From IMG/VR virus record IMGVR_UViG_3300037400_001962, positions 58,702 through 122,701 of that record: a stretch of DNA of 64,000 nt; one strand, given 5' to 3'. Under the pieces are notes generated by a model. It did no database searches and had not been told where the DNA came from. It saw only the letters and a program-made list of their open reading frames with translations. Below, piece by piece: positions 4,397 through 61,336 of the stretch (positions are counted from its first letter, which is position 1; the number at the start of each line of letters is the position of its first letter). This DNA comes from a virus (taxonomy: Duplodnaviria > Caudoviricetes). A program made the position numbers and the translations under genes.

Positions 4397-5434
4397 ATGA
4401 CACTTAATGAATTAAAAGAACTTGCCCTTCATGCTGTTAGGGGTACTGCTCCTGATACCTTCACTGTTGAGAACGTTAATGACGCTTTCGCTGATGGCTT
4501 AAAGGAGTTTGCTGGTAGTTATAACCAGTTCATGAAGAATCGCTACGATCTGTATGATATTATTATTCAGTCTATTGACGAAATTCTTCCTCGTGATGTT
4601 ATGACCGCTATCGGTCAGTTTGCTGAAATCCAGTCCGTCGCCCAAGGACAAAAAGCTATGTTCCGTAAAAAGCTCGGCCGCGCCCGTGCTAAGAAATTCC
4701 TTACTCAGGTTGGTCTGAGTGGTGTTTATGAGACATTCCGTCTCGATAGCGAGACCTTCGAACTTGGTGCTCATGCCGTTGGTGGCGGTGCTACTATCGA
4801 CTTCGAGCGTATGCTTGATGGCGCTGAGTCTCTTGCAGAAGTTGTTGGTATTGTGACTGAGGGTCTGACCAATGCTGTGTATGTTGAGGTTCAGAAGGCT
4901 CTTGTTGCTGCTTATGCAGATATGCCTGCTACTAACCGTTATGCTGGCGCTTGGAACGCTGAGGAAATGGTTAAGCTGATGAATATTATCCGTGCTTACG
5001 GTCAGCCTGTTATCTTTGCTTGCCCTGAGTTCATCGCTGCTATGGGCCCTGATGCTATCGTTCCTGTGTCTACCGGTACTGGTCAAGGTGTTTACAGCCC
5101 CAAGGATATTGAAGCTATCCATGATACTGGTTTCATTAAAGTATTCCGTGGTGCTACTGTTGTTGAAATTCCTCAATCCTTTGTTGATGAGAATAACAAA
5201 GAGACTTACGTGAATCCTCGTTTCGCTTATGTTATGCCTGGTGGAGCTGAGAAGGTTGTTAAGGTTGTTCTTGAAGGCCAAACTCAGATTCGTGACCACG
5301 AGAATAAAGATAATTCTATGGAAGTTTACGCATGGAAAAAGATGGGATGCGCTATTCTGCATCACAACAACTGGGCTATCTATGAGAACACTTCTCTCAC
5401 CGATACCTCAGCTAAGGACATCTACGGTTTCTAA
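4397..5434 (+). CDS. Major capsid protein
   Basis: 345 aa, strong RBS, strong codon bias, TAG-free, followed by a terminator. Canonical position in the head module. Confidence 0.8.
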   Translation: MTLNELKELALHAVRGTAPDTFTVENVNDAFADGLKEFAGSYNQFMKNRYDLYDIIIQSIDEILPRDVMTAIGQFAEIQSVAQGQKAMFRKKLGRARAKKFLTQVGLSGVYETFRLDSETFELGAHAVGGGATIDFERMLDGAESLAEVVGIVTEGLTNAVYVEVQKALVAAYADMPATNRYAGAWNAEEMVKLMNIIRAYGQPVIFACPEFIAAMGPDAIVPVSTGTGQGVYSPKDIEAIHDTGFIKVFRGATVVEIPQSFVDENNKETYVNPRFAYVMPGGAEKVVKVVLEGQTQIRDHENKDNSMEVYAWKKMGCAILHHNNWAIYENTSLTDTSAKDIYGF

Positions 5435-5450
5435 TATAAACTAATATAAA

Positions 5451-5478
5451 GGGAAGGGATAATTCCCTTCCCTATTTT
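5451..5478 (+). terminator. Intrinsic terminator after the capsid gene
   Basis: GGGAAGGG-ataatt-CCCTTCCC followed by TATTTT. Confidence 0.7.
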
Positions 5479-5517
5479 AAAATACGCGCAAAGCGCAGGA
5501 GTAAAAGGAGAATAGTT

Positions 5518-5997
5518 ATGTCAGATAAAGTAAAAGTTATTAGTCAATATGATGGTCGTTGCGGTATTGACAATTCAGATCTTCGTATTTCCCGTCGGTG
5601 GCCCGCGCGCGGTTCACATGTGATGTTTGATAAAGAAGTTCTTGAAGAGCTTATGTATGACCAGGCCTTTAAAAACATGGTTGAAGAAGGTTATCTTTAT
5701 ATTGAAGATATGAATGTTAAAAAAGAGCTTGGTATTGAGAAAGAAGAAGCAACTACGCCAGCTATTATTTATTTAAGTGATAAAGAGTTAGAACGTTTTT
5801 GGAAAGTTATGCCATTAACGCAATTTAAAGTTGAAGTTAAAAAATTAACTAAAGTTCAACTTGATAGTCTTGCCGATTTTGCAATTAAACATGGCGATGA
5901 TGGTTCTATTCAAAAAGCGAATTATCTAACTGAGATTAGTGGTCGTAATATTCTTAAGGGGATTGAATTTTAGAAACAAATTGCTAAGGAGGGATAA
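5518..5997 (+). CDS. Hypothetical head/neck-region protein (TAG read as Gln)
   Basis: Track ORF extended through TAG 5971 to TAA 5995-5997, abutting the next start. Confidence 0.6.
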
Positions 5998-6000
5998 TAA

Positions 6001-6453
6001 ATGACCGACTTACAAGTAGTTTATGATGCTTTCTTAGCAAAACTTTTAGATGACGAATGGGGCGTATGGGAAGAAGAAGACATGCAAGAAGATTGGAAGT
6101 CTATCTTACACGGCGCGCTTCCATGGTTTAAATTTCCACGTGTTTCTCTTGAAATTGTTACCGATGAAGAAACTGGTGAAGAGAAGTTTGAAGAAGATTT
6201 AAATAACGAAGAAATTTAGATTTTAGCTACTTATATGAAATGTGAGTGGTTAAATCGTACTATACTAACATGGGAAAATGTGAAGCCACTTTATGATGAA
6301 AGAGATTTTTCACAGGCAAATTTAATTGATAAATTTAATTAGATGTTAGTATAGGAAAAGAAAAATGCGGCCAAGTTAGAGGCTGTATACTATAGATCTA
6401 TAAAGAGGAAGCCTTTTGATTATACTCAAATGGCAACTGCGATAGATGGCTGA
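6001..6453 (+). CDS. Putative head-tail adaptor (TAG read as Gln)
   Basis: Reads through 3 TAGs to TGA 6451-6453, overlapping the next start. Function inferred from position only. Confidence 0.5.
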
Positions 6454-6700
6454 AGTATTAGAAGGATATAATAATAATTTAAAAAATCGTTTATTTGGTT
6501 TACTTTGTGAATATGAAAAAGGCCGTGAATGGCAAAAGTTTTTAGATTCAATTTTAATTGAATTAATGTCATATCCAGAGGACTATAAAACGATAAATTA
6601 TTATAGATTATATACAAAAGTTTCTTCACTTCGTTATTTAAGTTATGAATACTTTAGAAGTACAGTTTTTGACTGTATGAGTTTATTATCAAAATTATGA
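6446..6700 (+). CDS. Hypothetical protein
   Basis: Intact 84 aa ORF, translationally coupled on both sides. Confidence 0.6.
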   Translation: MAEVLEGYNNNLKNRLFGLLCEYEKGREWQKFLDSILIELMSYPEDYKTINYYRLYTKVSSLRYLSYEYFRSTVFDCMSLLSKL

Positions 6701-7419
6701 GTTATTTTGATATTTATAAAATGCGGCTTAACCGTTTCGGTAATGATTATCAATCTCGTATTTAGGGAGAACGGGAACACTTATTTGATCTTTACTTATT
6801 AAAATCTATTTATAGAGTGGATTTTATGTATGAAGGCTAGCATTATGCTGGTAGTTTAGAAAGAAATAAACAAGATAATAGTGAAACAAGACAATATTTA
6901 TTAACTGATATAAATTTAAATATACCTAATGGGACTATTTTAATGATTCCTAATAAAGACAATATTAAAGTTCCATGGATGATTTATTATCTTGAGAATA
7001 TAAAAGCTAGTGGGTATAATAGATATATTGTACTAAAAATGACACATTTACTAAGATGGACTGCGCGCGATGGGTCAGAGCAAGAATCATATGCTTATAT
7101 GTATGGGCAAGAAGATAATATGCTTAAAAATGAAATTCGTTCGCGTTCGCGCATGGATACAATATATGAAGAGAATTTAAAACTTAGTTTTTTTGTTATA
7201 CCTACAAATAGTAATTTAAAAATCGATGATTATTTTATTATTGGCGAAAAGCCATTACAAGAATATTATCGTGTAACTGGTTTTGATATTTAGTCTACTC
7301 CTGGTGTTGAGTTTGTAAGCGTTGATCCTATTTATGAATTTGATTTAACACCGCCGCCAGAAAAACAATAGGAAGATGATTCAGAAGATTATTTCTGGTT
7401 TAATGGAGGTCAAGAGTAA
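6697..7419 (+). CDS. Putative head closure / neck protein (TAG read as Gln)
   Basis: ATGA overlap at 6697; in frame with track ORF 6943-7293; ends TAA 7417-7419. Confidence 0.55.
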
Positions 7420-8670: not shown

Positions 8671-9612
8671 ATGGCTAGTATTTTAGATCGTTACGGCATT
8701 AAAGAAGTTGCCGATGTAACATTCTATAAGATCAATTCTGATGGTACTCCTGGTGCTCCTGTACTATTTCTTGATACTTTGAAAGTATCTACAATCGAGC
8801 AAACTGCTGAACAAGTTGATGCTCGTGGTGGTAAAGGTAATCCCAAACTGATTACTTGGGACTATGGTAAGGAGATCACTCTTACTCTTGAAGATGCTCT
8901 ATTTAGCCCTAAGTCTATGGCCATTATGCTTGGTGATGGTACCGTTGCCCAAGGTACTGCTGGTTATATTCGTAAAACTGGTGTTGTTCGTTTAGGTAAT
9001 ACTGTTGGCACTGGTGCTAGTGCAAAAGTTAAATTCTTAAATGATTACATTACTGTTGACGTATATGATGCAAATGAAGGCAGTAAGCGTGTTAAATTAT
9101 ATCTTGGGAACGGCGATGCTCCAGCTGGAGAAGTGGCTTTTACTAATCAACTTGCTTTCTTAGTAAACGGTGAAACTGCAAAACTATATGATGAAGATGG
9201 TACGGTTCTTGAGAATGCTCTTACTATGGCAAAATTAAAGAGTTATTACACTACTGGTATTACTCCAAATGAAAACCAAATTCTTGATGGCCATAAAGTT
9301 ATGTTTACTTATTGGGTAAAGGCTACTACAAAGACTATTACTGTTTCTGGTGATACTTTCCCAGGTACATATTATATTCAAGGTGATACCTATTCTCGCT
9401 CCGATGTTGACGGACGTGATCAGTTCTTCCAGTTTATCGTTCCTAAAGCTAAGTTAACTGCTGAGCAAACAATTACTCTTGAGGCCGAGGGTGATCCTTC
9501 AACCTTTAATATGAATCTGACTGTTCTTCGTCCAGAATCTGGCGAAATGATGAAGTTAGTGCAGTATGACCTTGAAGTACCAGTAGGAACTGATGATGGT
9601 TCTGCGGGTTAA
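8671..9612 (+). CDS. Major tail (tube) protein
   Basis: 313 aa, TAG-free, strong RBS and codon bias, tube-like motifs (ARGGKGNPKLITWD; EGDPSTFNMNL), followed by a terminator and upstream of the tape measure gene. Confidence 0.75.
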   Translation: MASILDRYGIKEVADVTFYKINSDGTPGAPVLFLDTLKVSTIEQTAEQVDARGGKGNPKLITWDYGKEITLTLEDALFSPKSMAIMLGDGTVAQGTAGYIRKTGVVRLGNTVGTGASAKVKFLNDYITVDVYDANEGSKRVKLYLGNGDAPAGEVAFTNQLAFLVNGETAKLYDEDGTVLENALTMAKLKSYYTTGITPNENQILDGHKVMFTYWVKATTKTITVSGDTFPGTYYIQGDTYSRSDVDGRDQFFQFIVPKAKLTAEQTITLEAEGDPSTFNMNLTVLRPESGEMMKLVQYDLEVPVGTDDGSAG

Positions 9613-10516: not shown

Positions 10517-13500
10517 ATGGCGGGATAGAAATTTACATTAACATTTGATGCTAACTTAAATGTTAGTTAGATGAAAGGTGCCTTAAATTAGATTTAGAGT
10601 TCTCTTAATGGATTACATTTACCACAAAATATGGCAAAAGGGCTGTAGAGTACATTTGCTAATTTAGAAAAAGAGATATAGAATTTTGAAAATTTAACAA
10701 ATAAAGGTATTACTAAAGCTTCTGATATGTCTACACTTGAAAAATCAAGTGAAAAAATATTAAATTTTTATAATTTACTTTAGATTAAAATAAAAGACTT
10801 AGGGAATCTTGCGGGTAAGGATTTAAATAAGTTATTTCCATAGCAAGTAGTTGATTAGATTAATGCTGGACTTAATGCTTTAAAACAATATGAAACAGAA
10901 ATAAAAAATATTCAAGATAAAGTTAATAAATCTAAGAATAATGTTGATACAAGAAAAAATGAATTAGATGTATTATCACGGCAACGTCAATAGATGGAAT
11001 TGACTTTATAGACTCTTAAAAAACAAGAAGAATCTTATCGTAGTTTAGGTAATAAAGCAACCGAAGTTTTAAATAATCTATAGGCTAAAGCCTAGTCTTT
11101 ACAATAGATTATGGCTAATGCTGGAGTACGGAAAAATGTTGCATAGAGTATTAACGATTATTCCGAATTAGAAAAAGCATTAGAACAAGCTCGTTTAAAA
11201 TTAGAATAGTATTATAATAAAGTTCAAAATGGTAGAAAACCTAATCTTTTAACAGAAACTGGTCTTAAAAATAGAGTAGCTGAATTGGAGGCTGCACAAG
11301 CAGCATGGAATAAATAGGCCGCCGCGATTAATTATGCAGAAAATGCTGTGTAGAAATATACTACAAAAGCATAGAGTGCAAGTAGTACTATTAAGACTGT
11401 GACTTCGGATTTGACAAAATTAGAAGGTAAGATTAATACTGCATCAACTAATTTAAAAGTTGCAGAAGCTGCTTTTAAACAAATAAAAATTGCGGCTGGT
11501 ACTGATGCCACTACAGCGATAAATAACTTTTTTAGCACTCTTTAGAAAGCTGGATTTAATATATAGGGTTATGGTAGAACTGTAGATGAAGCAAAGCGTG
11601 CTTTAAAAGATTTTGAAAATGCGTAGAGATAGGCAGCAGTAAATGGTGTTTAGAAAGTATTAGCTGAACTTTAGGCATAGTCTGGCGCTTTACAGAATAA
11701 TAAAAATGATGTAGATAAGTGCACTGAATCATGGAAGCAATATATAAATCATGCTCAAGAAGTTGATGCACTTAAATCTCGTATTCAATATTTCTTTGGT
11801 TTAAATAATGCTATTCAATTAGTAAAGCGTACAATGCGCGAAGCTTACAATACAATTAAAGAGCTTGATAAAGCGATGACTGAGACAGCAGTTGTGACTG
11901 ATTTCTCAGTTGGTGATATGTGGGCATAGCTTCCCGATTATACTAGGCGCGCGAATGAACTTGGAGTTACAACAAAAGCGGCTTATGAAGCTGCAACTCT
12001 TTATTATCAGCAAGGTTTAAAAACTAATGAAGTCATGGCAATGTCTAATGAGACATTAAAGATGGCTCGTATTGCTGGCCTTGATGCTGCTGTTGCGACT
12101 GACCGTATGACAAATGCTATCCGTGGTTTTAATATGGAGATTAATACTACGAATGCATAGCGTATTGATGACGTATATTCAAGATTGGCTGCGATTTCTG
12201 CTTCTAATGTTGATGAAATTTCAACAGCTATGACTAAAGTTGCATCTTTGGCCCATAACGCAAATATGGAATTTGAAACAACAGCGGCTTTCTTAGCATA
12301 GATTATTGAAACTACTCGTGAATCTGCTGAAACTGCTGGTACTGCTTTAAAGACTGTTGTTGCAAGATTCTCAGAAGTTAAGAAGCTCGTAAGCGAAGGA
12401 GAGTTAAGTGGTTCTGATGAAGAAGGAGAACTTATTGATGTTAATAAAGTTTCTTCTGCACTTCGTGTTGCTGGAATTGACTTAAATAAATATTTTTTAG
12501 GCCAAGTTGGGCTTGATGATATATTTATGGAATTGGCTTCTAAATGGAACCAATTAACTACTTTACAACAAAGATATATAGCTACATAGGCTGCTGGTTC
12601 TCGTCAGCAATCTCGTTTTATTGCTTTAATGTCTGACTATGCTCGTACTCAAGAATTAGTTGGCGAAGCATATAAAGCAAATGGTGCATCTGCAAAGTAG
12701 TTTGAAAAAACACAAGAGTCGCTTGAATCAAAACTTGCTCGTTTAAAGAACGCCTGGAATGAATTTGCCATGGGTATTCTTAATAGTGATATTGTTAAAG
12801 CTGGCGTTGATATATTAACTAACTTATTAAATGGTGTTAATGCTTTAACTAGTGGTTTTGGGTCATTAAATTCTGGTGTTGGAAGTTTTATTAATACTTT
12901 TGCTAAACTTGCTTTATTAATAGGTGGATTAAAAGTTGGTAAAGGATTAACTGCTGGTTTGTTTGGTTCTATGCTTTCAGCCGTAACTGGTGGCAAAGTT
13001 GGTGGTGGATTTGCAAATATCGCTGCTGGCGCGATGGGAGTTAATCCGGGAAAAAATCTTTTAACTACTCTTGGTGCAGGAGCTATTAATCCGTTTAAGA
13101 ATATTGCAACTGGTATTGGTGGTAAATTATCTGGTATTGGTTTTAATGCAATAAATGCAAATTATGCAGGTAGTACTGCTTTATCTGGAAAATTAGCCGC
13201 TGGTGTTTTTGGTAAACTTACTGGAGCCGGCATGGCAACTGGTGCGGCGTAGGGTATCGCTGGCGCGGCGAGCTTATTACCAGTAATTGCAGGTATTACT
13301 GCCGCGGCTGGTGTTGCGTATGTGGCAATTAAAAAATTATATGATGCTTCTCCCGCTGGTCAAATTAAAATAGCTGAAAAATATGCAGCATCATTATCAG
13401 AAGTTGCAGATGCGGCGCGCGCAAGTTAGAGAGAATTTGAATCTATTCAAGAAGAATATAATCGTCTTGAAACAAATGTACAATAGGCTACTACTGCGGA

Positions 13501-18854: not shown

Positions 18855-21800
18855 ATGGATAAATATGAAATAAGTTTGTGGGAAGATTATCCAGATCTTA
18901 CCTCAAATAATATTCCATTTTTAAACGAAGGTAAAATATGTGTTATAGGTTCTGATACAATGACAACCGCAGCCCGCGCCCTAGAACCAAAATTAATATC
19001 AAATGTTAATGGTACACATATCTTTACTTTTAGAATTTATTATAGATATAAAGACGAGATAACTGGCGAAGAAAAAATTAATCCATATCTTCCATATCTT
19101 ATAAATGAAAGAAAAGTTAAAGTCTTGTGGAAAAAGAAATGGTATGATTTAGTAATAAAGAAAATAGAAGAAGATACATAGAAGCGTTCTGTGTTGTGTA
19201 CTTGTGAAGACTTATTTATTACTGAATTAAGTAAGAATGGATATGAACTTGAATTTAATAGTGAATTATAGAATAATAGTGGTACGGCGCAAGAACTAAT
19301 GGGAAAAGTTCTTGATGGTAGTGGATGGCGGCCGGCCGCAGAGCAAGATAGAATAATTCAATACCAAGAAGAACCAGTTTATGAAGTTACTACTATAAAT
19401 AGTTTTATTGCAATTAAATAGTCTCCTTCTGGTTTAGATGAAAATATATCTATACCAAAAGATAAATTATGCTTATTATATTAGTCATGTTTGGATGAAT
19501 CTTGCATTAATATTTAGTTTCTTTATAGTGATGAAGGTTATGCCACAGAAGTTAATGATATGCTTGTACTAAATGGTGATTGTTGTACTTTTGTTGGTAA
19601 AATTGTATATAGTGGTAATTATGCTACTATTACTAATAATTCTGGAACTAAAATATTTGAATTTAATATTAATGATTCATATTCATCTAATTATCGTGCA
19701 AAGCGTTTAGTTAATAGTTAGGTAACTGTTTTTGATGAATTACTTGGACGATATGTTGACGTATACACTGATGGAAATGGAAATGATATTTATGGTTATG
19801 AAACTACCGAATATTCTGATCCAACTTTAGTAGTAAATTTAATTGCTAATTCAAAAGATTTTAAAGACACTAAAGGCTGGATTGGTAATGATATAACTTG
19901 GAAATTAAGTCCATCATTTACTTTAGATAGTTCTGGAAAACCGTATTATAATATTTATAGTAATGATGAATATATCATTGATGACGGCGTTCTTATTGAT
20001 GAAACATTGCCGACTTATGAAGCAAAAAGTTATTTATAGGTATCAAGTGGAAGTATTTATAATACAGCTTTTGTTTCAAATAGAAGTTTTTTAAATCCAA
20101 GTTCTATTGATATAAGAAATGGTAGACTTGGTGGTTTCTAGAAAGATGAAAAGTATATTTTTAGATATAAAGTTAAGAGTCAGTTGACAGGTAGTACGTA
20201 TATGCAATCTGGTATTACTGGTAATGTTTATAAATTCCAGATTAATGCTGGTAATTATGTAAAAACTGGTAATGCTTATTTTTCCTCTTCTGATCCAAGT
20301 TTTAAATCTAATGGTAATTGGGTTGAATATACTTTGACTTGTGTTGAAGCTTGCCCAGCTAACGAACTTGATTAGATTGGGTTTTTTATTGATGTTAATA
20401 ATTCATGTTATATTGAAGAAATTTAGTTTTTTAAATTAGCTTATGGTAAAACTCATTATAAACTTAAAGACACAGATCCAGAGCCAACGGAAGAACGTAT
20501 AAATCCAGGTGAAATTACACTTCAATCTATTGCTAATGTAGTTTATAGATATTATAATCCAGACCATGATGGTGTAAAAGATCCAAAAGATTTGAAATTT
20601 ATATATTAGGGGACAACAAAATCAAATAATTATACTCCTAAATATAATAATTATGAAAAGATTACTTCAATTGAAGTAAGTAAATCTAATAGATTTAATA
20701 TTCTTTAGTCTATTGCAGAAAAGTTTGAATGTTGGGTAAGATTTATTATTAATCATGATGAAGAAACTGGCCAGGTTCGTTATGATGAAGATGGTCTGCC
20801 GCAGAAATATGTGCAGTTAGTTGAATAGATTGGCAACGATACTGGTATTTCATTTGAATATGGAATTGATTTAAAGGGCGTAAAAAGATCTATTATATCA
20901 AATACAATAGCAACTAAAGCAATTATTATTCCTAATGAAAATGAATTTGGTAAACATGGATTCTGTACAATCGCGCGCAGTCAGTTAAATTATTGTAGAG
21001 AGAATTTTATTTTAAATTTTGATTATTATATTTAGCAAGGGCTTTTAGACAAAGATACTATTGAAGCAGATTTATATAAAACTAATAATGGGCATTTAGG
21101 TTATTATTTTTATTTAAATAAATGGAATAAAAGATATGATGCCTTAGCCGATGAAATTAATAATAAACAAACCGAGCTAATTAAACAAAGAGCTGAATAC
21201 AAAGTCCAAGTTGATAATTTGCGCGCGTCTGAAGAAAAATTAACAGATAGTATTTCTGATTTAATTTTATTAGCTGGCGTATCTACTCTAGCGGCCGCGC
21301 AACAATATGCCGTAAATCATGTAACTAATAGAAAAGTTCAATCATTAATGGGAGCTATAGGTAAATTAAGAGTTAGTATTCGTAATTTATCAAATAGTAT
21401 TAATAACTTAAAAAGATCTATTTAGGAATTAGAGAGATTTATTACTGCTACTAATGATGAAATGAATGGTCTTGTTGAAGACATTAATTTATTACATGAA
21501 AAGTTCTTTAGAAAATATTCTCGTTTTATTCAAGAAGGAACTTGGCAAGACTAGAATTATGTTTATGATGATGATTATTATTTAGATGCACTTGAAGTTG
21601 CTTATAGATCATCAAGACCACAAATTCAATATGATATTTCTTTACTGCGGTTGAGCGGTTTAGAAGATTTTAGTTCTAAAGTTTTTGATCTTGGTGATAT
21701 ATGTTATGTTCAAGATAAAGAGTTCTTTGGTTATGAAAAAGATGGAATTACTCCATATAAACAAAGAATTATTATTAGTTAGTTAACTTCTTTCTTTGAT

Positions 21801-37947: not shown

Positions 37948-40900
37948 TATCCTTCATCCGCCCTTTCTGTTTTAATTACTAATCTTCCATTTTCGATACC
38001 AGTTATTTGTTCTACTCTATGCCAAGGTGTAGTTTTATATACTTTCGCAACAAAACTTTCTTCTTGACGAATACCAGTAACAATAATTTTATTACCACGA
38101 GTGAATGTTGATTTCTCAATCACATGTTTTCGACCATCTGGCCCTTTTACAGAGATTTGCTTATCATACGCTTCAAACGCTCCATAAATCTTTACTGAAA
38201 CTACACCAGTTGGTGTTAATAATTGTACTGTCTTTTTAGCTTTATCTCTGTCCAAAACTGTGCCAGCAATACGATGAAGCCTAAAGATCGGAACTTGTTT
38301 GCCTTTAATTGGAATAACTCTTTCCACTTCTGCTTGTTCACTAAGGTCAAAGAAATCTTCGATCATATAAATACTCAAATCAACATTTGCTAATTCATGA
38401 TCGTGAGAATAGAATGAAACAGAATCCATTTCCCATTTACTAAAATCTCCGAGACAATATTTGTTCCAAACATCAGAAGTTAGTTTATCATTCACAGCTT
38501 TAAGAAGTTCTTCATTATGCTCTTTTACAAACGGTCTGATAATATCCATTTGTTTTTTATAAATACTATCCCATACTGTTTGCTTAATACAAAAACCGCT
38601 TTCTGTGAATCTATTAGGTTCAGTTTTATCTATATCAAAATAAGTTTCAAGAAACTTAAAAGCTGGATTGTCAAGACCATAATAACCTTGATCCATTTTC
38701 ATTTTTTTAATATACTTATTAAAATTATACACGCGGCGCTGTAAATCATATTTATCTGGAATTAAACCAAAATCAATTAACATTTTCATATTTTGAAGAG
38801 TGATACGTTTCTTAGTATCACTTATCATATTAACATACTCATGCATAAGTTTTGTTCTATCTCCAAAACTATCAAATGCACCAGATTTAATAAGATTTAT
38901 CATTTGAACTTTATTAACCTTTACTTTTGAAAGAAAATCAGTTATTGAAGTATATGGACGATTCATGATGATTGCTTTTACGAGTTCTTCACCCACGCGC
39001 GTAATACCACTAATACCATAACGAATAATATTAAGTTTTGCATCTGGAGAAAACGTATAGGTTGATTTATTAATGTCTGGAGGTTCAACGACGATCCCAC
39101 TCATTCTCATTTTTCCAATTGCAGTTGCAATCTTACCATAGTTTACACTTGAAGTTTTCTTTTTCTTTTTTACACCAGCTTCAACTTCTTCATCTTCATC
39201 GTCATCTTCTTCATCGTCTTGTGTAAACTCTTCAATCTCATTATTATATACTTCTTCTACTATTTCAATTTCTTCATCTTCTTGCTCTTTTTCATCGCCA
39301 CCCGCGTCTGTAATTAAACACGCGCAGTTCCAAAAGATAATTGGATAATGATATGCAAGATTCATTTCTTGAAGTGCAATTAAACTATATGCAAGAGTAT
39401 GAGACTGATTAAATCCATACCCACGGCTCATTGCAATCAGAACATTCCATACATAGTTTGTGAGTTTTTGATCTATTCCTTTTTCTTTTGTGACTTCAAA
39501 AAATTCTTTGGTCAATGCATCATAATCTTTTGGGTTCTTCTTCGCAATTGATTTACGAAGTTTATCTGCCCAAGTCAAACTAAAACCACCAAGTTCTGGA
39601 AGTTGAACTAACTCCATAAATTGCTCTTGTGCGATACAAAGACCATATGACATACCAAGAACTGGTTCAAGAATTTTTCTTTCTTTTTCTCCAAGCCCAT
39701 ATCGTTCCATCTCTTTTTCCCATTCATTTGGATTTGCTTTGAAGCGCGCGAGCTTATCGGTTGGCATTTCTCCGCCTTTTTCTTGCGCCATAAGACGAAT
39801 TGTAGAGTTAAGAATTGCAAGGTCATCAACAGAAGTTGGCTTTAGAGTTGCTATACCATTAATACCAGATTGCTTTTCCATTTGAAACAGAGATTGAATC
39901 TCATGATTCCAAACCATTTTCCACATCTCTGGATTATCGCGCTCAAGATTATATACACCAATTATATTTTCATAAGTTTCTTTTAGTGTGCGCTCACGCT
40001 CAACTAAACCAGCATCACACAAAAGATCAATACAATTATGAATCTTATCCATCGCTTCAACCGATAACGCGTCATATTTAATAAGACTTACATCTTCTGC
40101 ATCATGAAGCTCAAACTGTGTACAAATTGTACCATCAGGCGCACGCATTAATGCAGTTGATTCAGTAAATGGTTCATCAACAAAGATAACACCACCGGCA
40201 TGAATACCAGAACCACAAATTAATCCTTCAATTTTTTGTGCCACATTCCATAGCTCTGGATAGTTATTCATTTCAACAATGAACTGCTTTATTGGCGCAA
40301 AATCATTTTCAGTATCACCATTATAACACTGGCTCAATGTTCTTAACATACCACGATCTGCCGGAATCAAACTTGCAATATATTGAGCTATATCTACATC
40401 AATACCTAAGCCGCGCGCGGCTGTAAGAATTGCAGATTTAGATTTTTCTGTACGGAATGTCGCAACGTTTGCTACTCTATCTTCTCCATAATATTTACGA
40501 AACGCATTTAAAACTTGAGCACGCCGGCCGCCCTCAATATCGAAGTCAACATCAAGGACAGACACACGATCGGGATTCAAAAACCTCCAACGGAAACATT
40601 TAGTTGTTTCTCTGAGTGGATTAATTTGAGTAATATCAAGGCAATACAGAAGTATAAAACCAACACCAGAACCGCGTCCAGGTCCAACAAGACTGCCAGC
40701 TTCCCAACAAATATCAATAATATTTTGAAGGTTTAAATAATATGCACTCCATCGTGCTTTATTAACTTCGGAAGAAACCCATGTATCTTCGAGACAGGCA
40801 TTGATTTCATCATATGCTTCTTTATTTTGAAGGTCTGGATGTGTATCAATACCATGCACAACTGCTTTCACCAAATATCTATCAGATTCATATGGAGACT

Positions 40901-41918
40901 CTGCAAAAGTCCAAAGCATTGGAATTTTCATACACATTTCTTCATATCCCCAAGCATCTGGTTCTTTTTCAATTGGTTTCCACTTTAAATTCGGAATCTT
41001 AAGCGGCCGCAGTAAACTAAAATCTTCAATACTATCTCTAATCTTTAAAATATTTTTATATGCTTCTTGAAGAATATCGGAACTAAAGTATGGAAAGTAA
41101 CTTTCCAATTCCTTTGTTCCCATCATGTAAGTTGTTGCATAAAAATCATCAACTTCGCGTTCGCCATTCTGTGCATTAAGATACGCTTTATGAACAACTC
41201 TATCTTCTTTACGAAGATAATGGCTATCTGTCGTAATAATATAAGGAATATCAAAATAAATCGAATGTTTTAAAAGCGTCTTATTAACTAAGATTTGGTC
41301 TTTATTTTTTGATGGCTGCATCTCAAAATAAAAATTGCCATGCCCAAAAAGTTTATCCATCTGCTGAATCCACATATCAATCTTTGGTAGAAGCTCAGGA
41401 TTACTTTGCGCGCGAAGAATTTGAGTTGGAAGCGCGCCGCCAAGGCAAGCTGTTGAACCAATTACATGACCAGGATTCTTCCCAATAATTTCAAATAAAT
41501 CATTATAATATGTTGGAACTCTACGCATGCCGCGTGCCATATAACTACGCATCCATGCACGAGTTGAAATTTCTCGAATCTGCTGGGCACCCACTTGGTC
41601 GCGCGCCAATAATATGAAATGGAAATACCTATCAACTTCTTTATTATAATTCTGCGCATTTAATCCATTTCTACAAAGATAAATCTCATTACCAAGAATT
41701 ACTTTTAATTCTGGATATTTCTCTTTTAATTTTTTTGCAGCCTTTTCAGCCTTAACCCAACCACTAATACTTTCGTGGTCAGTTAAGGCTACTACTTTAT
41801 GTCCGAGCGCGCCTGCATAATTAAATAAATCATCGAGTTTGTTTATGCAATCACGCAAACGAATATTTGAATAATCTGAATGATTATGTAAGCTCCCTGG
41901 GTAATTCAGTTTCTCCAT
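37947..41918 (-). CDS. dnaE: DNA polymerase III alpha subunit
   Basis: PHP domain (LHNHSDYS, TDHE, DSHY), GPGRGS, DVDFD, GIHAGG and GYGFNQSH motifs; 1323 aa with no TAG. Confidence 0.95.
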   Translation of the reverse strand: MEKLNYPGSLHNHSDYSNIRLRDCINKLDDLFNYAGALGHKVVALTDHESISGWVKAEKAAKKLKEKYPELKVILGNEIYLCRNGLNAQNYNKEVDRYFHFILLARDQVGAQQIREISTRAWMRSYMARGMRRVPTYYNDLFEIIGKNPGHVIGSTACLGGALPTQILRAQSNPELLPKIDMWIQQMDKLFGHGNFYFEMQPSKNKDQILVNKTLLKHSIYFDIPYIITTDSHYLRKEDRVVHKAYLNAQNGEREVDDFYATTYMMGTKELESYFPYFSSDILQEAYKNILKIRDSIEDFSLLRPLKIPNLKWKPIEKEPDAWGYEEMCMKIPMLWTFAESPYESDRYLVKAVVHGIDTHPDLQNKEAYDEINACLEDTWVSSEVNKARWSAYYLNLQNIIDICWEAGSLVGPGRGSGVGFILLYCLDITQINPLRETTKCFRWRFLNPDRVSVLDVDFDIEGGRRAQVLNAFRKYYGEDRVANVATFRTEKSKSAILTAARGLGIDVDIAQYIASLIPADRGMLRTLSQCYNGDTENDFAPIKQFIVEMNNYPELWNVAQKIEGLICGSGIHAGGVIFVDEPFTESTALMRAPDGTICTQFELHDAEDVSLIKYDALSVEAMDKIHNCIDLLCDAGLVERERTLKETYENIIGVYNLERDNPEMWKMVWNHEIQSLFQMEKQSGINGIATLKPTSVDDLAILNSTIRLMAQEKGGEMPTDKLARFKANPNEWEKEMERYGLGEKERKILEPVLGMSYGLCIAQEQFMELVQLPELGGFSLTWADKLRKSIAKKNPKDYDALTKEFFEVTKEKGIDQKLTNYVWNVLIAMSRGYGFNQSHTLAYSLIALQEMNLAYHYPIIFWNCACLITDAGGDEKEQEDEEIEIVEEVYNNEIEEFTQDDEEDDDEDEEVEAGVKKKKKTSSVNYGKIATAIGKMRMSGIVVEPPDINKSTYTFSPDAKLNIIRYGISGITRVGEELVKAIIMNRPYTSITDFLSKVKVNKVQMINLIKSGAFDSFGDRTKLMHEYVNMISDTKKRITLQNMKMLIDFGLIPDKYDLQRRVYNFNKYIKKMKMDQGYYGLDNPAFKFLETYFDIDKTEPNRFTESGFCIKQTVWDSIYKKQMDIIRPFVKEHNEELLKAVNDKLTSDVWNKYCLGDFSKWEMDSVSFYSHDHELANVDLSIYMIEDFFDLSEQAEVERVIPIKGKQVPIFRLHRIAGTVLDRDKAKKTVQLLTPTGVVSVKIYGAFEAYDKQISVKGPDGRKHVIEKSTFTRGNKIIVTGIRQEESFVAKVYKTTPWHRVEQITGIENGRLVIKTERADEG

Positions 41919-44902: not shown

Positions 44903-47133
44903 TATATTTTCACTCTTTTCTTTAATAATTTAATAAATACTTCTTCACCTTTATCAGTTGGTGAATCTTTTAAATCTAACAAATTTTCTTTATCATATAT
45001 AAAACTAAAGTTCGCATATACTTGATATTTCTTACACAATTCATAAAGATGATTAAAGTATTTATCTTCATGTGGTAATTCTTCTTTATCAAAGCATATC
45101 ACAATTTCTTGCGGATGACAAGTTCGCACCAATATATCAAGCGCATATTTATTTAATTTTGACCCGCACACAGCGGCCGCGTAGTTAGGAATTGAAAATG
45201 ACTCCATTTGAAGTACACTTTTTTCCAGTTATTCCATTGTTTCCAATGGCCTTGACTATATCTTCTAACAATGTTAGTCTACCATTTCAAATGACGTATC
45301 AATAGTCATCTTACTCCGCGACAAAGCGGATAGTCGATACAAGTTATTTACGTAATGGATAAGTATATATATCATTTTTACGAGAAGTTCCTTTGTTAAT
45401 ATTATAAACTGTTGTTTGGCTAATATTATATTTAATTGCTAACTGGCTAAAAGAGATGCCAGTATTTATAATATCATTACATAATTCACTCAGTTCTTCT
45501 GCTGTTAATGTATGTTTTTTATGTGGTGTGATTCTTGTTCTAATAGGATAAATAATATTTTCTTGCTTCTGGTTTGACCCTTCATTAATTCGTTGAATTG
45601 CTGCGCCAGAAACACTATATTTTTCCCCTATTTCTGCACAAGTCATTTGAGTAGTTTGTAATAGTTTGATGATTTCTTGAAGTTGTTCAGAATTAATTTT
45701 ACGTCCTCGCGTCATTTCATTAATAGGATATGTCCTATTTTTATCTCTTCTACGTTTACCAGTATTGATTTCTGAAATATGAGATATAGATACTCCAGTT
45801 CTATCTTTTATTGTTTCATAATCAATTTGTTGTTCTAATAAACTTTTTACTTCTTCAACAACTTCGTCTTCAAACTTCGCGGTTGTAAAACTTAATTCAC
45901 CACCAGGAGTATAATTATATTTACTTGGGTCATTAAAAGTATCGTAATATTTAATCCAATATTTTTCTTGTTTTAACGAATCTTCATAAGTAAATACTTC
46001 TTCTATAATTTCACATTTGTAAGCGTCTACCCCATATTTGCGGATGCCTCGACTCAATGGATAATTATAATGTGGCCTATTAACTTCTGCTGGTTCATAT
46101 ATTTCATGTTCGCGCCGCCTGCGTTCTAAATTATTAGTACGCCCTACATAAACTACTTTATCTTCATCTATTTTAATATATTTATAAATTATATAGTGTT
46201 CCATATTACTTCCTCCATCTTCTATATATAAGTAGAATTGTAATACGGACTCTCTACAAAAATAAATCCATTTTGTAAATCTTCCCACGGTATTACCATA
46301 TCCTTTAAAGGACTTAGGCTCTCTTACCACTTTAATCTTACGATTTAGTTGACCGTTAGCCGCATAATGCGACCCCGCTGATGAGACGGAAAGATAGATA
46401 AGGCCGATTATTCAGCCTCAAATAAATATGCAATACCAGTTGCTTTTATATTTTCTTTTGTTTTATTAAGCCCATAAAGATTAAGACTTAATGGGTGACT
46501 ATACCATTTCCCTTCTATTTGAACTGGCATATATTTTCCCCACGTATCTATATCTTCCTGATTGAGCGCGCGCCCTCTAATTCCAATAAGTCTCCCATTC
46601 ACATCATAATGCGGAATAATAATTTTATTTTGAGATGGAGAATATCGAATATTAAACTTATCCATAGCTTCGCGGCTAATTCCGTCATTAAGCCATTCGA
46701 TTGGATAATACTTAGTAAAACATTCCATAATCTTATCAGAATAAGCCGGAAGTTCTTGTCTTTCTTTCTTTAATGTATAATCATTACGAATTGATTTATA
46801 TGAAGTAGTATTTTGATGCTCGTTAAAATATGAGCAACCGCGTATAACTTCATATATATCAGTAAACCAATCATAATCTATATCTCTTGCTTCATAAAAA
46901 TGTTTCAAGAAAGAAAATATAGACATCGCGCCATCTTCTGTGTAGCAATAAAAGATATGTGTATTCTTATAATAATAAAGTTTCATTGAAGCGTCATCAA
47001 TATTACTATGATGACACACAGTTGGCATAACTAAATAACTTTCTCTATCCTCATATGGAATTTCTAATCTATCCAACATACCTTTAACTTTATTATCATC
47101 TAATTCATCAATAATAGCTTGATAGTCTATCAT
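44902..47133 (-). CDS. dnaG: DNA primase; exons 47133-46414 and 45225-44902
   Basis: Zinc-binding CHH...CYT, IIIPH, GIRGR, LYGL. Splicing restores TOPRIM LFEAEKSV, followed by ICFD and DSPTD. Confidence 0.85.
45226..46413 (-). mobile_element. Group I intron in the primase gene
   Basis: P1 GAGGCU|GA-auaa-UCGGCCUU with U.G at the splice site, TCGACTA / AAGATATAGTC P7 pair, terminal G, in-frame join. Confidence 0.85.
45344..46204 (-). CDS. Intron-encoded GIY-YIG endonuclease with HTH repeats
   Basis: YIIYKY...VYVGRT..L.RR..EH, EKYWI, YNYTPGG; GGAGG before ATG 46204. Confidence 0.8.
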   Translation of the reverse strand: MEHYIIYKYIKIDEDKVVYVGRTNNLERRRREHEIYEPAEVNRPHYNYPLSRGIRKYGVDAYKCEIIEEVFTYEDSLKQEKYWIKYYDTFNDPSKYNYTPGGELSFTTAKFEDEVVEEVKSLLEQQIDYETIKDRTGVSISHISEINTGKRRRDKNRTYPINEMTRGRKINSEQLQEIIKLLQTTQMTCAEIGEKYSVSGAAIQRINEGSNQKQENIIYPIRTRITPHKKHTLTAEELSELCNDIINTGISFSQLAIKYNISQTTVYNINKGTSRKNDIYTYPLRK

Positions 47134-51512: not shown

Positions 51513-51574
51513 AATTTTCATTCTCCTATAATTTAAAATATTTATTTAATTAAGTCTTCCTTAATTATGTATTT

Positions 51575-52469: not shown

Positions 52470-52473
52470 ATTT

Positions 52474-55223: not shown

Positions 55224-58113
55224 TATTCTCTTACCTCCGAAAAATCAATTTTATTAAAGATAAATTCTTTTCTAGGTTCAACGTCGCTCCCCATTAGTTC
55301 TTCCAACATATATAAACTATCTGGATCTGGTTCAAGAACATCCATACGTTGAAATTCAGGAGTAAACATAGACTTATGTGCTTGCTCTACGCTTAGAGCG
55401 CCCAGGCCTTTCGCGCGCTGAACTTCACCTTTAAGCTTACCGCGCACCTTATTAAATTCTTCATCTGTAAAGTAATAAGATTCATTTTTTCCATTCTTTA
55501 CGATATAAAGTGGAGAGCGGAGCCAACAAAGACGTTTTTCATTTAAAAACTCTGGTGCAAGGTATCGAAGTGCCGCCATTATAAGAAGTCCTATATGGTA
55601 ACCCAACCAATTCCAATGTTTCCATTGGGGCAGACTATATGTTACTCACCAATGTGAGAATACTCTTTCCACTTACGTACCAATAGTAAGTGTACTCTCC
55701 TTCCGGGAGATAGTCGTTACAGGCTTCATTTATTAACCCAAGTCTTTTGTTTCTTTTTGTATACTGGAAGGTCTTTATAGGTGCGGCCCCACAGTATTTG
55801 TTGTAGTGTTTGATAGCTACATCTATTTTGATAGTCTTTATAAATAGATCGTGCATCTTCATTTACATAGCGCTCGCGCATTTGAAGTACTTCATCAGAT
55901 GTGAATTTAGCCATTTCTGATTTACTTCCATCTGTTGCGTGTTGCATATAGTAGAGTTTATTTTCTTTGGTATAAACTTCCGGTTTAATATCTTTCCAAG
56001 TTGTGCCATCCCAAATTCTAGCAAATGAATCAAAAGCTATTTTATTTTTAAACTTCTCATATACTTCTTTACGTCTTAAATGTGCATCATAACATTCACG
56101 TATATAAGCCACATCATCATTTGTTAATTTGGTTCGACCGTTATGTTCTCCTCTACTATTTCCACCGCCAGGGTTGCAATTATAACCAAATCCTTTATAT
56201 GTGTTATAATATGCAATCCAATAAATTTCTCTTTCATCAAGCTATTCTAATGAACATTCCTCAATGATTTCAAATTTAAATGCGGTCGCGCCGTATTTTT
56301 GTATTGCTATTTCAATTGGAAGATCAATTTTATATTTATGTTCTTTAAAACGGCGTTCAATATCATTACTCTATCCGATATAGGACTTACCATTTTCAAT
56401 TTTTGTTATCTTATAAATGCCTATCATTGCGGCACCTCCACAATTATTAGGCTTGGGTTAATTCTGATTCCCACGGGATCTGCATGCCCACAAGGGGTTT
56501 AGCTTCTCTTACCACCATAACCTTTCGGTTTAGTTGCCCGTTAGCCTTCTAATTATAAGTAGAATATGTAAACCATCACTATATAATTTTGAAGACCCCG
56601 CTGGTTAGCGGTAAAGTATTTACAGACAGTTTTATTTATCTGAGTCGGCATCAGTACAGATTCCAATACGCCCATATCTAAGTTTTGAACTATTATACTT
56701 CCCCGGCACAATATTCATCGCGCTACAAAGTAATTTAATCTCTTCATTCTGAAAAATCTTTTCTTCCGGATGCGCAAGGCAATTCAAAATTTTTCCTCGA
56801 ATAGCCAAGATTCCGTAATTCTTATAATCACGCGCCTTCGCAATACCACCGGCCGCGGAGTCGCCTTCGACAATAAGTAGAGTTGCATTTTGTCCAAGAA
56901 ACTCTGCATCTTTGAGTTTATCAGATGAAAATACTTTTTTCTTTTGGTTCTTTTCGATGTCTTTTGTTGCTTCGAGGACTTGCTTGCGCGCGCGTTCAGC
57001 TGCAGCTTCTGCTTTAGCAATTTTTTTTAATAGCTCAACAATACTTTCAAATTCATCACTATATTTGCTTTTCATTTGCTTTAGTGCATTACTAAAACAA
57101 TTCGATGCAAGAGTACGGAGATTCGTATTATTGATTTTGGATTTGGTTTGATTTGCAAAAGAAGGCTGAGAAACTGAACAGTTAATCACATAGAACAATC
57201 CGCCGCGAATTGCATCACCATCAAAATTTTGTTTTGAAAGTGAATTAAATGTGCGCGTGATTGAAGTCTTTGCTCCGGTGATAGGGCTGCCGCCCTCGGG
57301 ACAAAGCAAACCATTTACAAAAACGTATGACTGCTCTTTTCCACTACCCCACTGAAAAGCAATTTCAAGTTTATCACCATTTGTATCGGTTACTGAATCA
57401 TAGATGATATGTTTATGAAGTGGCTTGGAATTATTATCTTTTACAAAATCAATAATACCATTCTTTGCACAATAAGTCTGTACTTCTTTTGTATTTTGAT
57501 TTGTAATAGTAAAAGTAATACCACTATAAAGATAACTAATATTTTTTATATCATCACAAATCTTTTGATATGAATATCCAATTTCTCCAGTTTTAAACAC
57601 TTCTGGATCTGGAATGAACCATACTTCTGTACCATTGGGTTCAAGTGTTTTATGAGTATCATTATAGTATTGGAGTTCACCTTTTGTAAATTCCGCGCGC
57701 GCTTCAATTCCATCGCGGAAGCTTCGAACTTGAAATTCGAGCGCGCTTAAACATACACACTTAGCTCCAATGCCATTGAGACCGCTGGCATTCTTGTATG
57801 CGCCTTCTTCAAATTTACCGCCAGTATGAGATTTAGAGTAGATAGAAACAAGGACATTTTCTCCGTCATCTCTTACTCCGAAAGGGACACCACGCCCGTA
57901 ATCTCGAACTGCAATAGCATTAAGTTCTTCATCTACTGAAATTTCAATTTTATCACCATATCCAGCAATAGCTTCGTCGGTAGAATTATTTATGATTTCT
58001 TTAAAAGCTTGATATGTACCTTCGAGGTCATCAGAACCGAGATACATCTGAATACGTGATCTTACTCCATCTTTAAAAGAAAGAGATTGAATATCATTTA
58101 TTCCATAACTCAT
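55223..58113 (-). CDS. gyrB: Type IIA topoisomerase subunit B; exons 58113-56638 and 55603-55223
   Basis: GHKL motifs (EIINNS, DYGRG, HTGGKF, GLNGIG), VEGDSA and IRGKILN. Splicing restores TDADSDGYHI. Confidence 0.9.
55604..56637 (-). mobile_element. Group I intron in gyrB
   Basis: P1 CAGAU|...GUCUG with U.G, AACGACTA / ATATAGTC P7 pair, terminal G, in-frame join. Confidence 0.85.
55726..56427 (-). CDS. Intron-encoded GIY-YIG endonuclease (two TAGs read as Gln)
   Basis: GGAGG, then MIGIYKITKIENGKSYIGQSNDIERRFKEH...EIYWI...GYNCNPGG; in frame with track ORF 55726-56112. Confidence 0.8.
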
Positions 58114-59681: not shown

Positions 59682-59886
59682 ATTATTGCCTCCAATATCA
59701 TATTTATTAAATAATATTATTTATTTCTTCATTAGAAGAATTTGTAATAGGCAGAGTAGGCTGTGTTTGAAGAACAAGATAAAAATAATTTTTCCTTCTC
59801 ATAGATCTATCATAATATATCTTCTCATCTTTTATCATTTTCCCAAAATCAAGTGGATAATACTCTTTTCCATTTTTAATTATCAA

Positions 59887-60465
59887 TTATGTGCCCTCCT
59901 CAATACAATAACATATGTTTGGATCTTTCTAAGAAATAGCATTATATTCTGCTCGTGTGCCAAACCAAAAATTTGCATTGCCGCCAGAGCCTGATGACCC
60001 GCCAGCCGCGATAATTTCTAAACCACGATCTACAAATTGTTTTAATGCTAAAAATTCATCTGAAGAAAAAGTGTCTGGATTGCTCATGCTATTTGGAGAG
60101 GCCTATACATTAATTATAAAAGAAGCTGTAGATATTACTTTACCAGTAGTATTTACTCCATCAAATTCAACTAAATCAGCGTATACTCGTCCAGCAACAG
60201 CAAGACACTACTTTGTTAATGTTATACTTACAGTTCCATTAGAATTAACTTCTCCTTGTATTTCTCCAGTATGTTTGTCTGGTTTACAATACCTTAACCA
60301 TACAACGTTTCCTCTTGGAATTGAATATTTTTCATTATTTTTAATAAGCTGTACTACTAAAACGCGAGAATCTACATCATTCTACTTAGCATTTATGACT
60401 GGGTAGGCTGAATTAGGATCTACGTCAAGTATTATTTCTTGTGTATATTCAAAATTCTAACTCAT
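59887..60465 (-). CDS. BppU-like (upper baseplate N-terminal domain) protein (TAG read as Gln; absent from the ORF track)
   Basis: AKQNDVDSR, KPD, LTKQCLAVAG and SSDEFLAL motifs; open from ATG 60465 to TAA 59887 apart from TAGs. Confidence 0.65.
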
Positions 60466-60544
60466 AATTACCATCCTCTAACTATTAGTGATGTGCTATT
60501 GTCCTATAATATAAAGTAAAATAAATTTAAAATAAATATAAAAA

Positions 60545-60577
60545 AATAAACCCTCAGATAATTCTGAGGGTTTTTAT
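60545..60577 (-). terminator. Intrinsic terminator
   Basis: AAACCCTCAGA-taat-TCTGAGGGTTT with A/T tails. Confidence 0.7.
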
Positions 60578-60855
60578 TAACCAAATAGTGCATTTACCAT
60601 CTTTGAAAGTGAATCCCACTCTTCTTTAGTGTCTTCTGCTTTAAAGGTTTTGTGATACGCACCGTGCTTCTTGCAAAAATCACTAAGTGCTTTTTCATAA
60701 GCTACTCGCGCACCCACACATGCTTTATATGCGGCATCAACTTTCTCTGCGTCAATTTTGCGTGCGTTAATTTTGTTAGTGACTTCAGTTTCTGCTTCCT
60801 TAAGCTCATTTACTGTATCATATACTTTGCCAGTTACTTCGCTAAAATACTTCAT
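60577..60855 (-). CDS. Hypothetical early protein
   Basis: 92 aa, AAGGAG RBS, own promoter and terminator, TAG-free. Confidence 0.65.
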   Translation of the reverse strand: MKYFSEVTGKVYDTVNELKEAETEVTNKINARKIDAEKVDAAYKACVGARVAYEKALSDFCKKHGAYHKTFKAEDTKEEWDSLSKMVNALFG

Positions 60856-60913
60856 AATAAATATCTCCTTTTATATTTATTTATAAACGTGTTCCTATCC
60901 ACGTTTATAAGTT

Positions 60914-60942
60914 ATTATAACATAAATTTTCTTAAAAATCAA
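60914..60942 (-). promoter_or_regulatory. Sigma-A-type promoter
   Basis: TTGATT-17 nt-TATAAT with TG. Confidence 0.65.
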
Positions 60943-61021
60943 ATTTTTATATAGTATTCAAATTTAAAGAGGAATGTTTTTATTTGCTTACTTAATTAAT
61001 AGAATACTGGAGGTGATCGTT

Positions 61022-61336
61022 TTGATAATTGGGACAACTCCAACTTTTACTCTTACAATTCCAAACAAAGGAAATTTAAATTTAAACGATGCAGAAAAAA
61101 TTTATTTTACAATACGGTAGGGGAGTCTAGTAATTACAAAAACTGGAGAAAATGTTAATATAATAGATGAACATACTGTTTAGGTTTCTTTTACATAGCA
61201 AGAAACTCTTCAATTTAGATATAATGCTCCTGCAAAGATTCAATTGAACTGGATTTATATTAATGGCGCGCGAGCAGCAAGTAAAATTAGAACTATTTAG
61301 CTTTCAGAAAATTTAATTCATGAGGTGCTTGAATAA
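61022..61336 (+). CDS. Putative virion structural protein (four TAGs read as Gln; absent from the ORF track)
   Basis: GGAGGTG plus TTG start; MIIGTTPTFTL...FTQQETL; TAATG coupling to the next gene. Confidence 0.6.

Follow-up and report, generated by a model that had tools for sequence, protein, structure and literature searches.

Diffuse, neighbour-dependent excess of G/C-only runs in the genome of an AT-rich phage and its relatives

Over-represented and under-represented palindromes have been described in several microbial systems. HIP1 (GCGATCGC) of cyanobacteria and its alternates are highly iterated palindromes (HIPs) (Elhai 2015, PMC4390886; PMC5861425). Phages avoid the palindromes of restriction sites (PMC6286503), and a survey found alternating G–C hexamers to be generally suppressed in prokaryotes (PMC4060949). 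Here we analyse a stretch of 64,000 nucleotides (hereafter, the window) from the viral record IMGVR_UViG_3300037400_001962 (Duplodnaviria; Caudoviricetes), for which an initial annotation, made from the letters and predicted reading frames, had reported an apparent strong excess of CGCG, GCGCGC and GGCCGC words. The window covers positions 58702–122701, the second half of a complete 122.7-kb record with a 127-bp terminal repeat, in a phage genome of about 34–35% GC. We find that the excess is real and unusual, and that it is a diffuse bias rather than a set of discrete sites. Our literature search found no description of such a G/C-run bias in phages.

Among described phages, phAss-1 and the Enterococcus phages EF1 and VPE25 are the closest, and the putative capsid protein is 32–35% identical to those of phAss-1 and EF1. 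The predicted hosts of phAss-1 are Clostridia (PMC10607447).

Word excess beyond codon usage

All 13 positions listed in the initial annotation carry alternating C/G runs of 7–9 nt, and the codon strings that it quoted are present (CTC GCG CGC GAG at 15817 and 33448 (−); GAA CGC GCG CGC AAG at 56986 (−)). We compared word counts with a codon shuffle, in which synonymous codons are permuted within each gene while the protein and its codon usage are kept (300–400 replicates). Against this null model, the window contains 194 copies of CGCG (89.5 expected, z = 13.5), 211 of GCGC (106 expected, z = 12.8), 49 of GCGCGC (7.5 expected, z = 18), 42 of CGCGCG (5.7 expected, z = 19) and 46 of GGCCGC together with its reverse complement GCGGCC (8.3 expected, z = 14). 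A stricter shuffle swaps third bases among codons that have the same amino acid, first two bases and following base, and keeps all dinucleotide counts. The excess remains under this shuffle for GCGCGC (49 versus 13.0, z = 11), CGCGCG (42 versus 9.3) and G/C-only runs of at least 10 nt (29 versus 5.6, z = 11), which rules out a dinucleotide artefact. The enrichment claimed by the initial annotation is thus retained under both codon-preserving and dinucleotide-preserving shuffles. Nor is it limited to the window: the whole 122.7-kb genome has 98 GCGCGC, 54 GGCCGC and 44 GCGGCC.

The words had been attributed to Ala–Arg pairs written GCG CGC in a genome in which Ala is mostly GCT or GCA and Arg mostly CGT or AGA. 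These preferences are correct by codon counts (Ala: GCT 0.38, GCA 0.34, GCG 0.17; Arg: CGT 0.33, AGA 0.31, CGC 0.16), and the description holds at the codon level, but it is too narrow. Each of the three codon phases shows the enrichment, which rules out an Ala–Arg dipeptide artefact, and long runs overlie Ala, Arg, Gly and Pro codons in any succession in which every wobble base is G or C. On the coding strand, GGCCGC (19) and GCGGCC (26) are equally enriched over the roughly 4 expected for each, without the strand bias of an oriented, Chi-like word.

No single word accounts for the pattern. At least ten different G/C hexamers exceed the codon-shuffle expectation; GGGCCC, CCCGGG and GGCGCC are at expectation, so the enrichment does not cover all G/C hexamers. 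Maximal-order Markov ratios are 1.10 for GCGCGC, 1.02 for CGCGCG and 0.84 for GCGGCCGC, such that the 6- to 8-mers are explained by their sub-words, and the excess begins at the level of 3- and 4-mers (CGCG is 1.56-fold over its trinucleotides). The genome also has 13 NotI sites (GCGGCCGC) in 122.7 kb, where about 0.1 is expected from base composition; these sites follow from the G/C-run rule described below, as the 8-mer is not above its 7-mers. Relative to the codon shuffle, G/C-only runs of 2–4 nt are depleted and those of 6 nt or more are enriched (8 nt, 31 versus 11.5; 9 nt, 14 versus 3.6; 10 nt or more, 29 versus 4.6). The window holds 74 G/C-only runs of at least 8 nt and 95 alternating C/G runs of at least 5 nt. 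Most runs are 6–9 bp, and the longest alternating runs reach 8–9 nt (n = 12). Among dinucleotide repeats only (CG)n is raised; (AT)3, (TA)3, (AC)3 and (AG)3 are at expectation, which excludes slippage (microsatellite expansion).

Other words fall below the codon-shuffle expectation. G/C words with A/T ends are depleted in the cases of TCGCGA (1 versus 8.6), AGCGCT (2 versus 7.3) and TCGA (71 versus 107). The avoided words also include GATC (99 versus 159), CTAG (64 versus 112), GCWGC (52 versus 82), ATCGAT (1 versus 14), GATATC (2 versus 14.5), CTGAAG/CTTCAG (17 versus 41) and A6/T6 (132 versus 226), as well as the Shine–Dalgarno-like words AGGA, GAGG and AGGT. Avoidance of the kind directed at restriction sites is therefore found for GATC, CTAG and ATCGAT, whereas its sign is reversed for G/C-only words.

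A context rule at wobble bases

The excess can be reduced to a rule on single bases. Where S is G or C, SS[N]SS denotes a four-fold degenerate wobble base with a G/C dinucleotide on each side. The G/C fraction at four-fold sites is 0.50 in SS[N]SS and 0.16–0.32 in other contexts. Within this class, the wobble base is G in 0.57 of GC[N]CG sites, C in 0.54 of CG[N]GC sites and G in 0.00 of GG[N]GG sites. The two orientations behave alike, GGG and CCC are avoided, and the base that makes C and G alternate is preferred. Neighbouring wobble bases are correlated, with a G/C fraction of 0.48 after a G/C wobble and 0.23 otherwise (odds ratio 3.1, P = 7e-11), a comparison that includes differences between genes in GC content at third codon positions.

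The rule extends to first codon positions. Arg is encoded by CGN, rather than AGR, at a fraction of 0.85 after two G/C bases and of 0.59 otherwise (odds ratio 3.9). The same coupling has an odds ratio of 4.4 in one relative (G011), 1.18 in a distant relative, 1.07 in VPE25 and 2.2 in T4 (not significant, n = 41). Strand symmetry and the coupling at the first position together locate the effect in the DNA duplex rather than in decoding. Strings of at least three Ala, Gly, Pro or Arg residues are modestly over-represented in genomes of the clade and not in the distant relative, T4 or VPE25, which hints that the force reaches the amino-acid sequence.

The bias in related phages and controls

A search with DnaE identified 55 related viral contigs, and codon shuffles and the odds ratio for a G/C wobble in G/C context were run on the 42 loci that were 15 kb or longer. 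By simple counts, the word excess is found in nearly all relatives whose DnaE identity is about 60% or higher. The context odds ratios were as follows.

Phage studied here: 3.7
Closer relatives: 2.5–7 in nearly all, the exceptions being L015 (2.0) and L020 (1.6)
Distant relatives (about 50% DnaE identity): 1.6–2.7
T4: 0.99
VPE25: 1.29
EF1: 1.32
phAss-1: 1.26
Eleven cellular loci (Methanobrevibacter, Bacillales and others): 0.5–1.1

Closer relatives thus share the bias, as the initial annotation had suggested should be checked. The 17 control sequences without it comprise 2 distant-relative records (5 loci), 4 cultured or described phages and the 11 cellular loci, and the comparison shows that the bias is specific to this phage clade.

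The words used are not the same throughout the clade: GGCCGC is high in some relatives and GGCGCC in others. Two genomes are most instructive. G016 (locus L015; loci L076–L079) has no GCGC in 62.6 kb, where 34 are expected, and 15 GGCC instead of 40. It still has an excess of runs of 8 nt or more (30 versus 17.8), which it spells with GCCGGC (20 versus 3.5) and GCSGC. G011 (locus L024; loci L080–L084) has 9 GGCC instead of 85 and no excess of GGCCGC, yet 188 GCGCGC where 51 are expected; it is also low in ACGT (47 versus 147), CATG (66 versus 157) and CCGG (45 versus 86). These depletions in G016 and G011 are strong footprints of restriction avoidance, and they vary among lineages within a single clade. 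Because GCGC or GGCC can be purged while the excess of runs persists, the differences between lineages reflect restriction avoidance acting over a common run-building force. The same genome-scale counts speak against lineage-specific, sequence-specific enzymes as the source of these differences.

Distribution and conservation of sites

The effect is seen in most long genes of both arms and is strongest in replication genes. Per-gene tests did not detect it in the putative major capsid gene, the putative major tail gene, the distal tail gene or blocks of GC-rich DNA. Representative runs and genes are given below in window coordinates.

4670..61275 (no strand): span of the diffuse bias; nearly all runs of the window lie within it, and the bias continues in the other half of the genome
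4397..5434 (+): putative major capsid gene, TAG-free, 45% GC; no effect (wobble G/C 0.28 versus 0.20; words 5 versus 4.1)
5600..5612 (+): 13-nt G/C-only run GGCCCGCGCGCGG over codons W-P-A-R-G
8671..9612 (+): putative major tail gene, a TAG-free virion gene; no effect (wobble G/C 0.07 versus 0.15; words 0 versus 1.3)
13412..13422 (+): 11-nt run GCGGCGCGCGC over A-A-R-A, within the 2,488-amino-acid, TAG-rich late gene 10517–17983
19327..19339 (+): 13-nt run GGCGGCCGGCCGC over W-R-P-A-A, in a 1,720-amino-acid late gene
37947..41918 (−): DnaE gene; CGCG plus GCGC 42 versus 18.3 expected; wobble G/C 0.44 when fully G/C-flanked versus 0.19 elsewhere
40410..40421 (−): 12-nt run GCCGCGCGCGGC over A-A-R-G, in the DnaE polymerase gene
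46566..46575 (−): 10-nt run with core GCGCGCGC, kept in most of the relatives listed
56986..56994 (−): CGCGCGCGC, CGC GCG CGC (R-A-R), in the GyrB gene; an example quoted in the initial annotation
57693..57702 (−): GCGCGCGCGG over A-R-A-E, in the GyrB gene

The DnaE gene is typical of the strongly affected genes. The 2,488-amino-acid late gene has 41 copies of CGCG plus GCGC where 16.2 are expected. The DnaE run GCCGCGCGCGGC has variant spellings in many relatives and is broken to CACGTGCC in the GCGC-free locus L015. The run at 46566..46575 is identical in L022, L008 and L012, and L015 has ATGCTCGT at that place.

The proteins would permit CGCGC or GCGCG at 755 places, of which 27% are realised. 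Realised sites have the same gap coefficient of variation and the same short-range pairing as random subsets of the possible sites, and we detected no signal of hairpin pairing or regular spacing. The spacing analysis proposed in the initial annotation therefore returned a random 27% subset. In close relatives at 82–91% nucleotide identity (24 kb of alignments), the conservation of wobble G/C is 0.45–0.62 within words and 0.37–0.61 outside them, with no extra conservation by position. Orthologous sites differ chiefly by CpG-to-TpG or CpG-to-CpA transitions, with much parallel change.

Substitution dynamics

Parsimony was used to polarise substitutions at four-fold sites in 10 lineages, and these were compared between context classes. 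The genome as a whole is under A/T pressure, with G/C-to-A/T transitions at 0.17–0.23 per site and the reverse at 0.06–0.13. Changes from A/T to G/C occur at 0.150 per site in the fully G/C-flanked context and at 0.076 elsewhere (odds ratio 2.1, P = 8e-6). Transitions of this kind (odds ratio 2.15, P = 3e-5) are the only class that is individually significant, and the A/T-to-A/T control is flat (odds ratio 1.22, not significant). Changes to the alternating base (0.175) exceed those to the other G/C base (0.088, P = 0.02). The substitutions resemble the outcome of a weak fixation bias.

Genome setting and candidate agents

Many late genes use TAG as a sense codon, with approximately 200 such uses in the window alone. 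Long late frames appear only when TAG is read as Gln, and the 2,488-amino-acid gene has 79 in-frame TAGs. ARAGORN predicts 10 tRNA genes at genome positions 20291–34205, in the first half, including Gln(UUG) and Leu(UAG); despite the use of TAG as a sense codon, none of these 10 has a CUA anticodon. The lysin domains are CHAP and PG_binding_1.

The minus-strand arm is a bacterial-type replication module with DnaE, DnaB, RecJ, NrdD, dUTPase, a nucleobase permease, GyrA, GyrB and a D12-class adenine methylase. The GyrB frame (56632–58113, −) contains the ATPase and GyrB domains and the start of the Toprim domain; after it come a GIY-YIG endonuclease gene (55726–56427, −) and a frame of 127 amino acids (55223–55606, −). 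This arrangement suggests that gyrB (window 55223–58113, −) is interrupted by a homing endonuclease. Gyrase was rejected as the cause of the bias: GyrA also occurs in the unbiased distant relatives G023–G025, and VPE25, with an annotated gyrase B, has an odds ratio of 1.29.

A search of this genome and of 27 relatives for a C5-methylase (PF00145) found none; CheckV puts the completeness of 10 of these relatives at 90% or more, and 8 of the 10 have terminal repeats. The genome has no PF01555-type N4/N6 methylase and no Vsr (PF03852), and the sole methylase found is the D12-class adenine enzyme (41969–42781, −); GATC is at 0.62 of expectation in the same phage. The footprint of very-short-patch repair was also sought, and the one-step neighbours of the words are not clearly depleted (GTGC/GCAC 0.90, ACGC/GCGT 0.91, TGCG/CGCA 0.98 and CACG/CGTG 1.01).

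Two GC-rich blocks (0.44–0.55 GC) lie at genome positions 44000–53300 and window positions 61662–64000, with mostly unannotated genes. In most of these genes CGCG and GCGC are not above the level set by their own codon usage, 61662–62561 being an exception (8 versus 2.9), and the blocks may be foreign or differently constrained DNA.

Matches to the xanthine/uracil permease (30038–31261, −), examined as a clue to the host, are only 29–37% identical, and the closest ones in the genome collection (32–37%) come mostly from rumen or gut Methanobrevibacter metagenome-assembled genomes. These genomes strongly avoid CGCG (for example, 1 versus 21.7) and lack the context bias, and are therefore uninformative on the phage host.

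Explanations for the bias

We favour, with a probability of roughly 0.6, the reading that the word excess is the surface sign of a neighbour-dependent bias, acting on DNA, by which weak, stability-sensitive repair or selection lengthens G/C-only runs. The base left free between G/C dinucleotides that the protein fixes (Ala GCN, Arg CGN, Gly GGN and Pro CCN) is G or C in about half of cases, compared with roughly a fifth elsewhere, and the resulting words are filtered in each lineage by ordinary restriction-site avoidance. As this avoidance decides which words survive, no word is itself the signal. The force would be weak per site (of the order of drift), diffuse and dependent on local duplex stability. 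It may consist of G/C-biased mismatch correction that is more effective within a stable G/C context, or of weak selection that favours short GC clamps of high stability in an AT-rich genome. More tentatively, and as a possibility to which we give considerably less weight, the clade may carry, or borrow from its host, a so far undescribed system that senses local G/C context in DNA. It could be a repair or recombination activity that turns mismatches into G:C only inside stable G/C runs, or genuine selection for short, highly stable GC clamps. Such clamps would restrain strand opening in an AT-rich genome that is supercoiled by the phage’s own gyrase.

Several observations limit the case for such a mechanism. 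A/T-to-G/C transversions (odds ratio 1.82, P = 0.12) and G/C-to-A/T changes in G/C context (odds ratio 0.77, P = 0.10) are not significant, though both are in the predicted direction. As only the gain by transition is significant, the pattern could have a purely mutational, context-specific source of A:T-to-G:C transitions. At the level of motifs, in an underpowered test, CGCG and GCGC are not created preferentially (15/327 versus 492/13780) and are lost slightly faster (P = 0.02). Parsimony polarisation is biased at 10–25% divergence. HhH-GPD glycosylase, UDG/Mug and MutS or other mismatch repair genes were not found in a genome in which many open reading frames have no Pfam match, and the bias is possibly imposed by the host. 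DNA free of long frames amounts to only 1.8 kb, so that the bias is known from coding DNA.

The other readings keep a small probability, each being disfavoured by at least one test. The initial annotation had proposed a discrete, selected DNA signal, and sites for binding, packaging, gyrase cleavage or Z-DNA would fit the very strong enrichment, equal on both strands, the phage-encoded GyrA and GyrB, the preference for alternating C and G and the several runs common to distant relatives. We nonetheless consider this improbable. No word is indispensable, given that one relative has zero GCGC and another is nearly without GGCC; higher-order words follow from lower-order ones, with GCGCGC only 1.10-fold over its 5-mers; spacing and pairing are random and wobble conservation is equal within and outside words; and the effect is absent from the putative capsid and tail genes. 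The unbiased relatives with GyrA, and VPE25 with gyrase B, argue against gyrase sites. The runs, mostly 6–9 bp and with only 12 in the window that reach 8 alternating bases, are short for Z-DNA, and the non-alternating GGCCGC is enriched too. Slightly less probable still is a HIP-like process, in which a cytosine methyltransferase for GCGC, CGCG or GGCC, with methylation-linked or very-short-patch repair, builds its own sites. GC-rich palindromes are indeed over-represented in every frame, as is HIP1 (PMC4390886), the words vary between lineages and a host enzyme is a possible source. Against it stand the searches for PF00145 in the genome and 27 relatives and for PF01555 and Vsr in the genome, the lack of clear depletion among one-step transition neighbours (0.90–1.01), the enrichment of many G/C words instead of one, a distribution that is not quasi-periodic and lineage differences for which avoidance accounts.

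Shielding alone, by which C-to-T deamination acts on breathing, AT-flanked DNA and G/C in a stable G/C context decays more slowly, is about as unlikely as the HIP-like process. The GC and CG steps preferred here are the most stable stacking steps by nearest-neighbour energies, A/T pressure is strong, and isolated CpG sites with A/T neighbours are fewer than expected (TCGA, TCGCGA and ATCGAT, as above). However, loss of G/C in the flanked context is reduced only 0.77-fold, which is not significant, and the significant signal is the 2.1-fold gain; of the shielding from C-to-T pressure raised in the initial annotation, a minor contribution at best is left. T4, VPE25, EF1 and AT-rich cellular genomes lack the effect, which is therefore not generic physical chemistry. 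A translational effect of codon pairs or tRNAs on Ala, Arg, Gly and Pro codons is the least credible of these readings. The effect is indeed observed at wobble bases of coding DNA, with only 1.8 kb of non-coding DNA for comparison, but the two orientations are equal on the coding strand (GC[G]CG 0.57, CG[C]GC 0.54), the effect is coupled to the first-position choice between CGN and AGR for Arg, and it is missing from the two virion genes that are putatively the most highly expressed, where such selection should peak.

Significance

The clade reverses the usual suppression of GC-rich palindromes, and does so through a simple, measurable rule: the odds ratio for a G/C wobble when it is flanked by G/C. 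Over-represented palindromes can arise without site-specific function, with restriction avoidance then selecting the words that survive, which calls for caution before enriched motifs are taken for binding or methylation sites. If the bias stems from context-specific repair or from selection for duplex stability, viral genomes would be shaped by a new force, and phage genome composition would have a new determinant. The signature could aid the binning and classification of clade members, and the rule also creates many sites for rare-cutting enzymes.

Comparison with known systems

The phAss-1-like code-15 phages, EF1 and VPE25 (PMC10607447) resemble this phage in their large siphovirus-type genomes, some with TAG as a sense codon, and VPE25 has the DnaE–DnaB–RecJ–gyrase replication module in common with it. 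They differ in having no G/C-run bias (odds ratios 1.26–1.32). GC-biased gene conversion, or biased mismatch correction, is similar in favouring A/T-to-G/C changes at otherwise neutral sites and in being diffuse, independent of position and overridden in some genes. Classical GC-biased gene conversion, however, lifts GC everywhere and does not require flanking G/C, whereas this phage stays at about 34% GC and is biased only within G/C context.

The likeness to HIPs lies in GC-rich, mostly self-complementary words that are many-fold over-represented in genes, in all frames, and that depend on the lineage. HIP is one dominant 8-mer with cognate orphan methyltransferases and a quasi-periodic distribution; the phage clade instead has a family of G/C-only words governed by a low-order context rule. 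Markov ratios show no single palindrome that dominates beyond its sub-words, no cognate methyltransferase was found in the phage genome or the 27 relatives, and the variation of gaps, neither quasi-periodic nor even, is that of random subsets. Restriction avoidance acts on the same genomes, which avoid GATC, CTAG, GCWGC, ATCGAT and GATATC, with GCGC or GGCC avoided in relatives. It differs from the bias described here in its direction, as G/C-only words are enriched 4–7 fold, opposite to the general trend.

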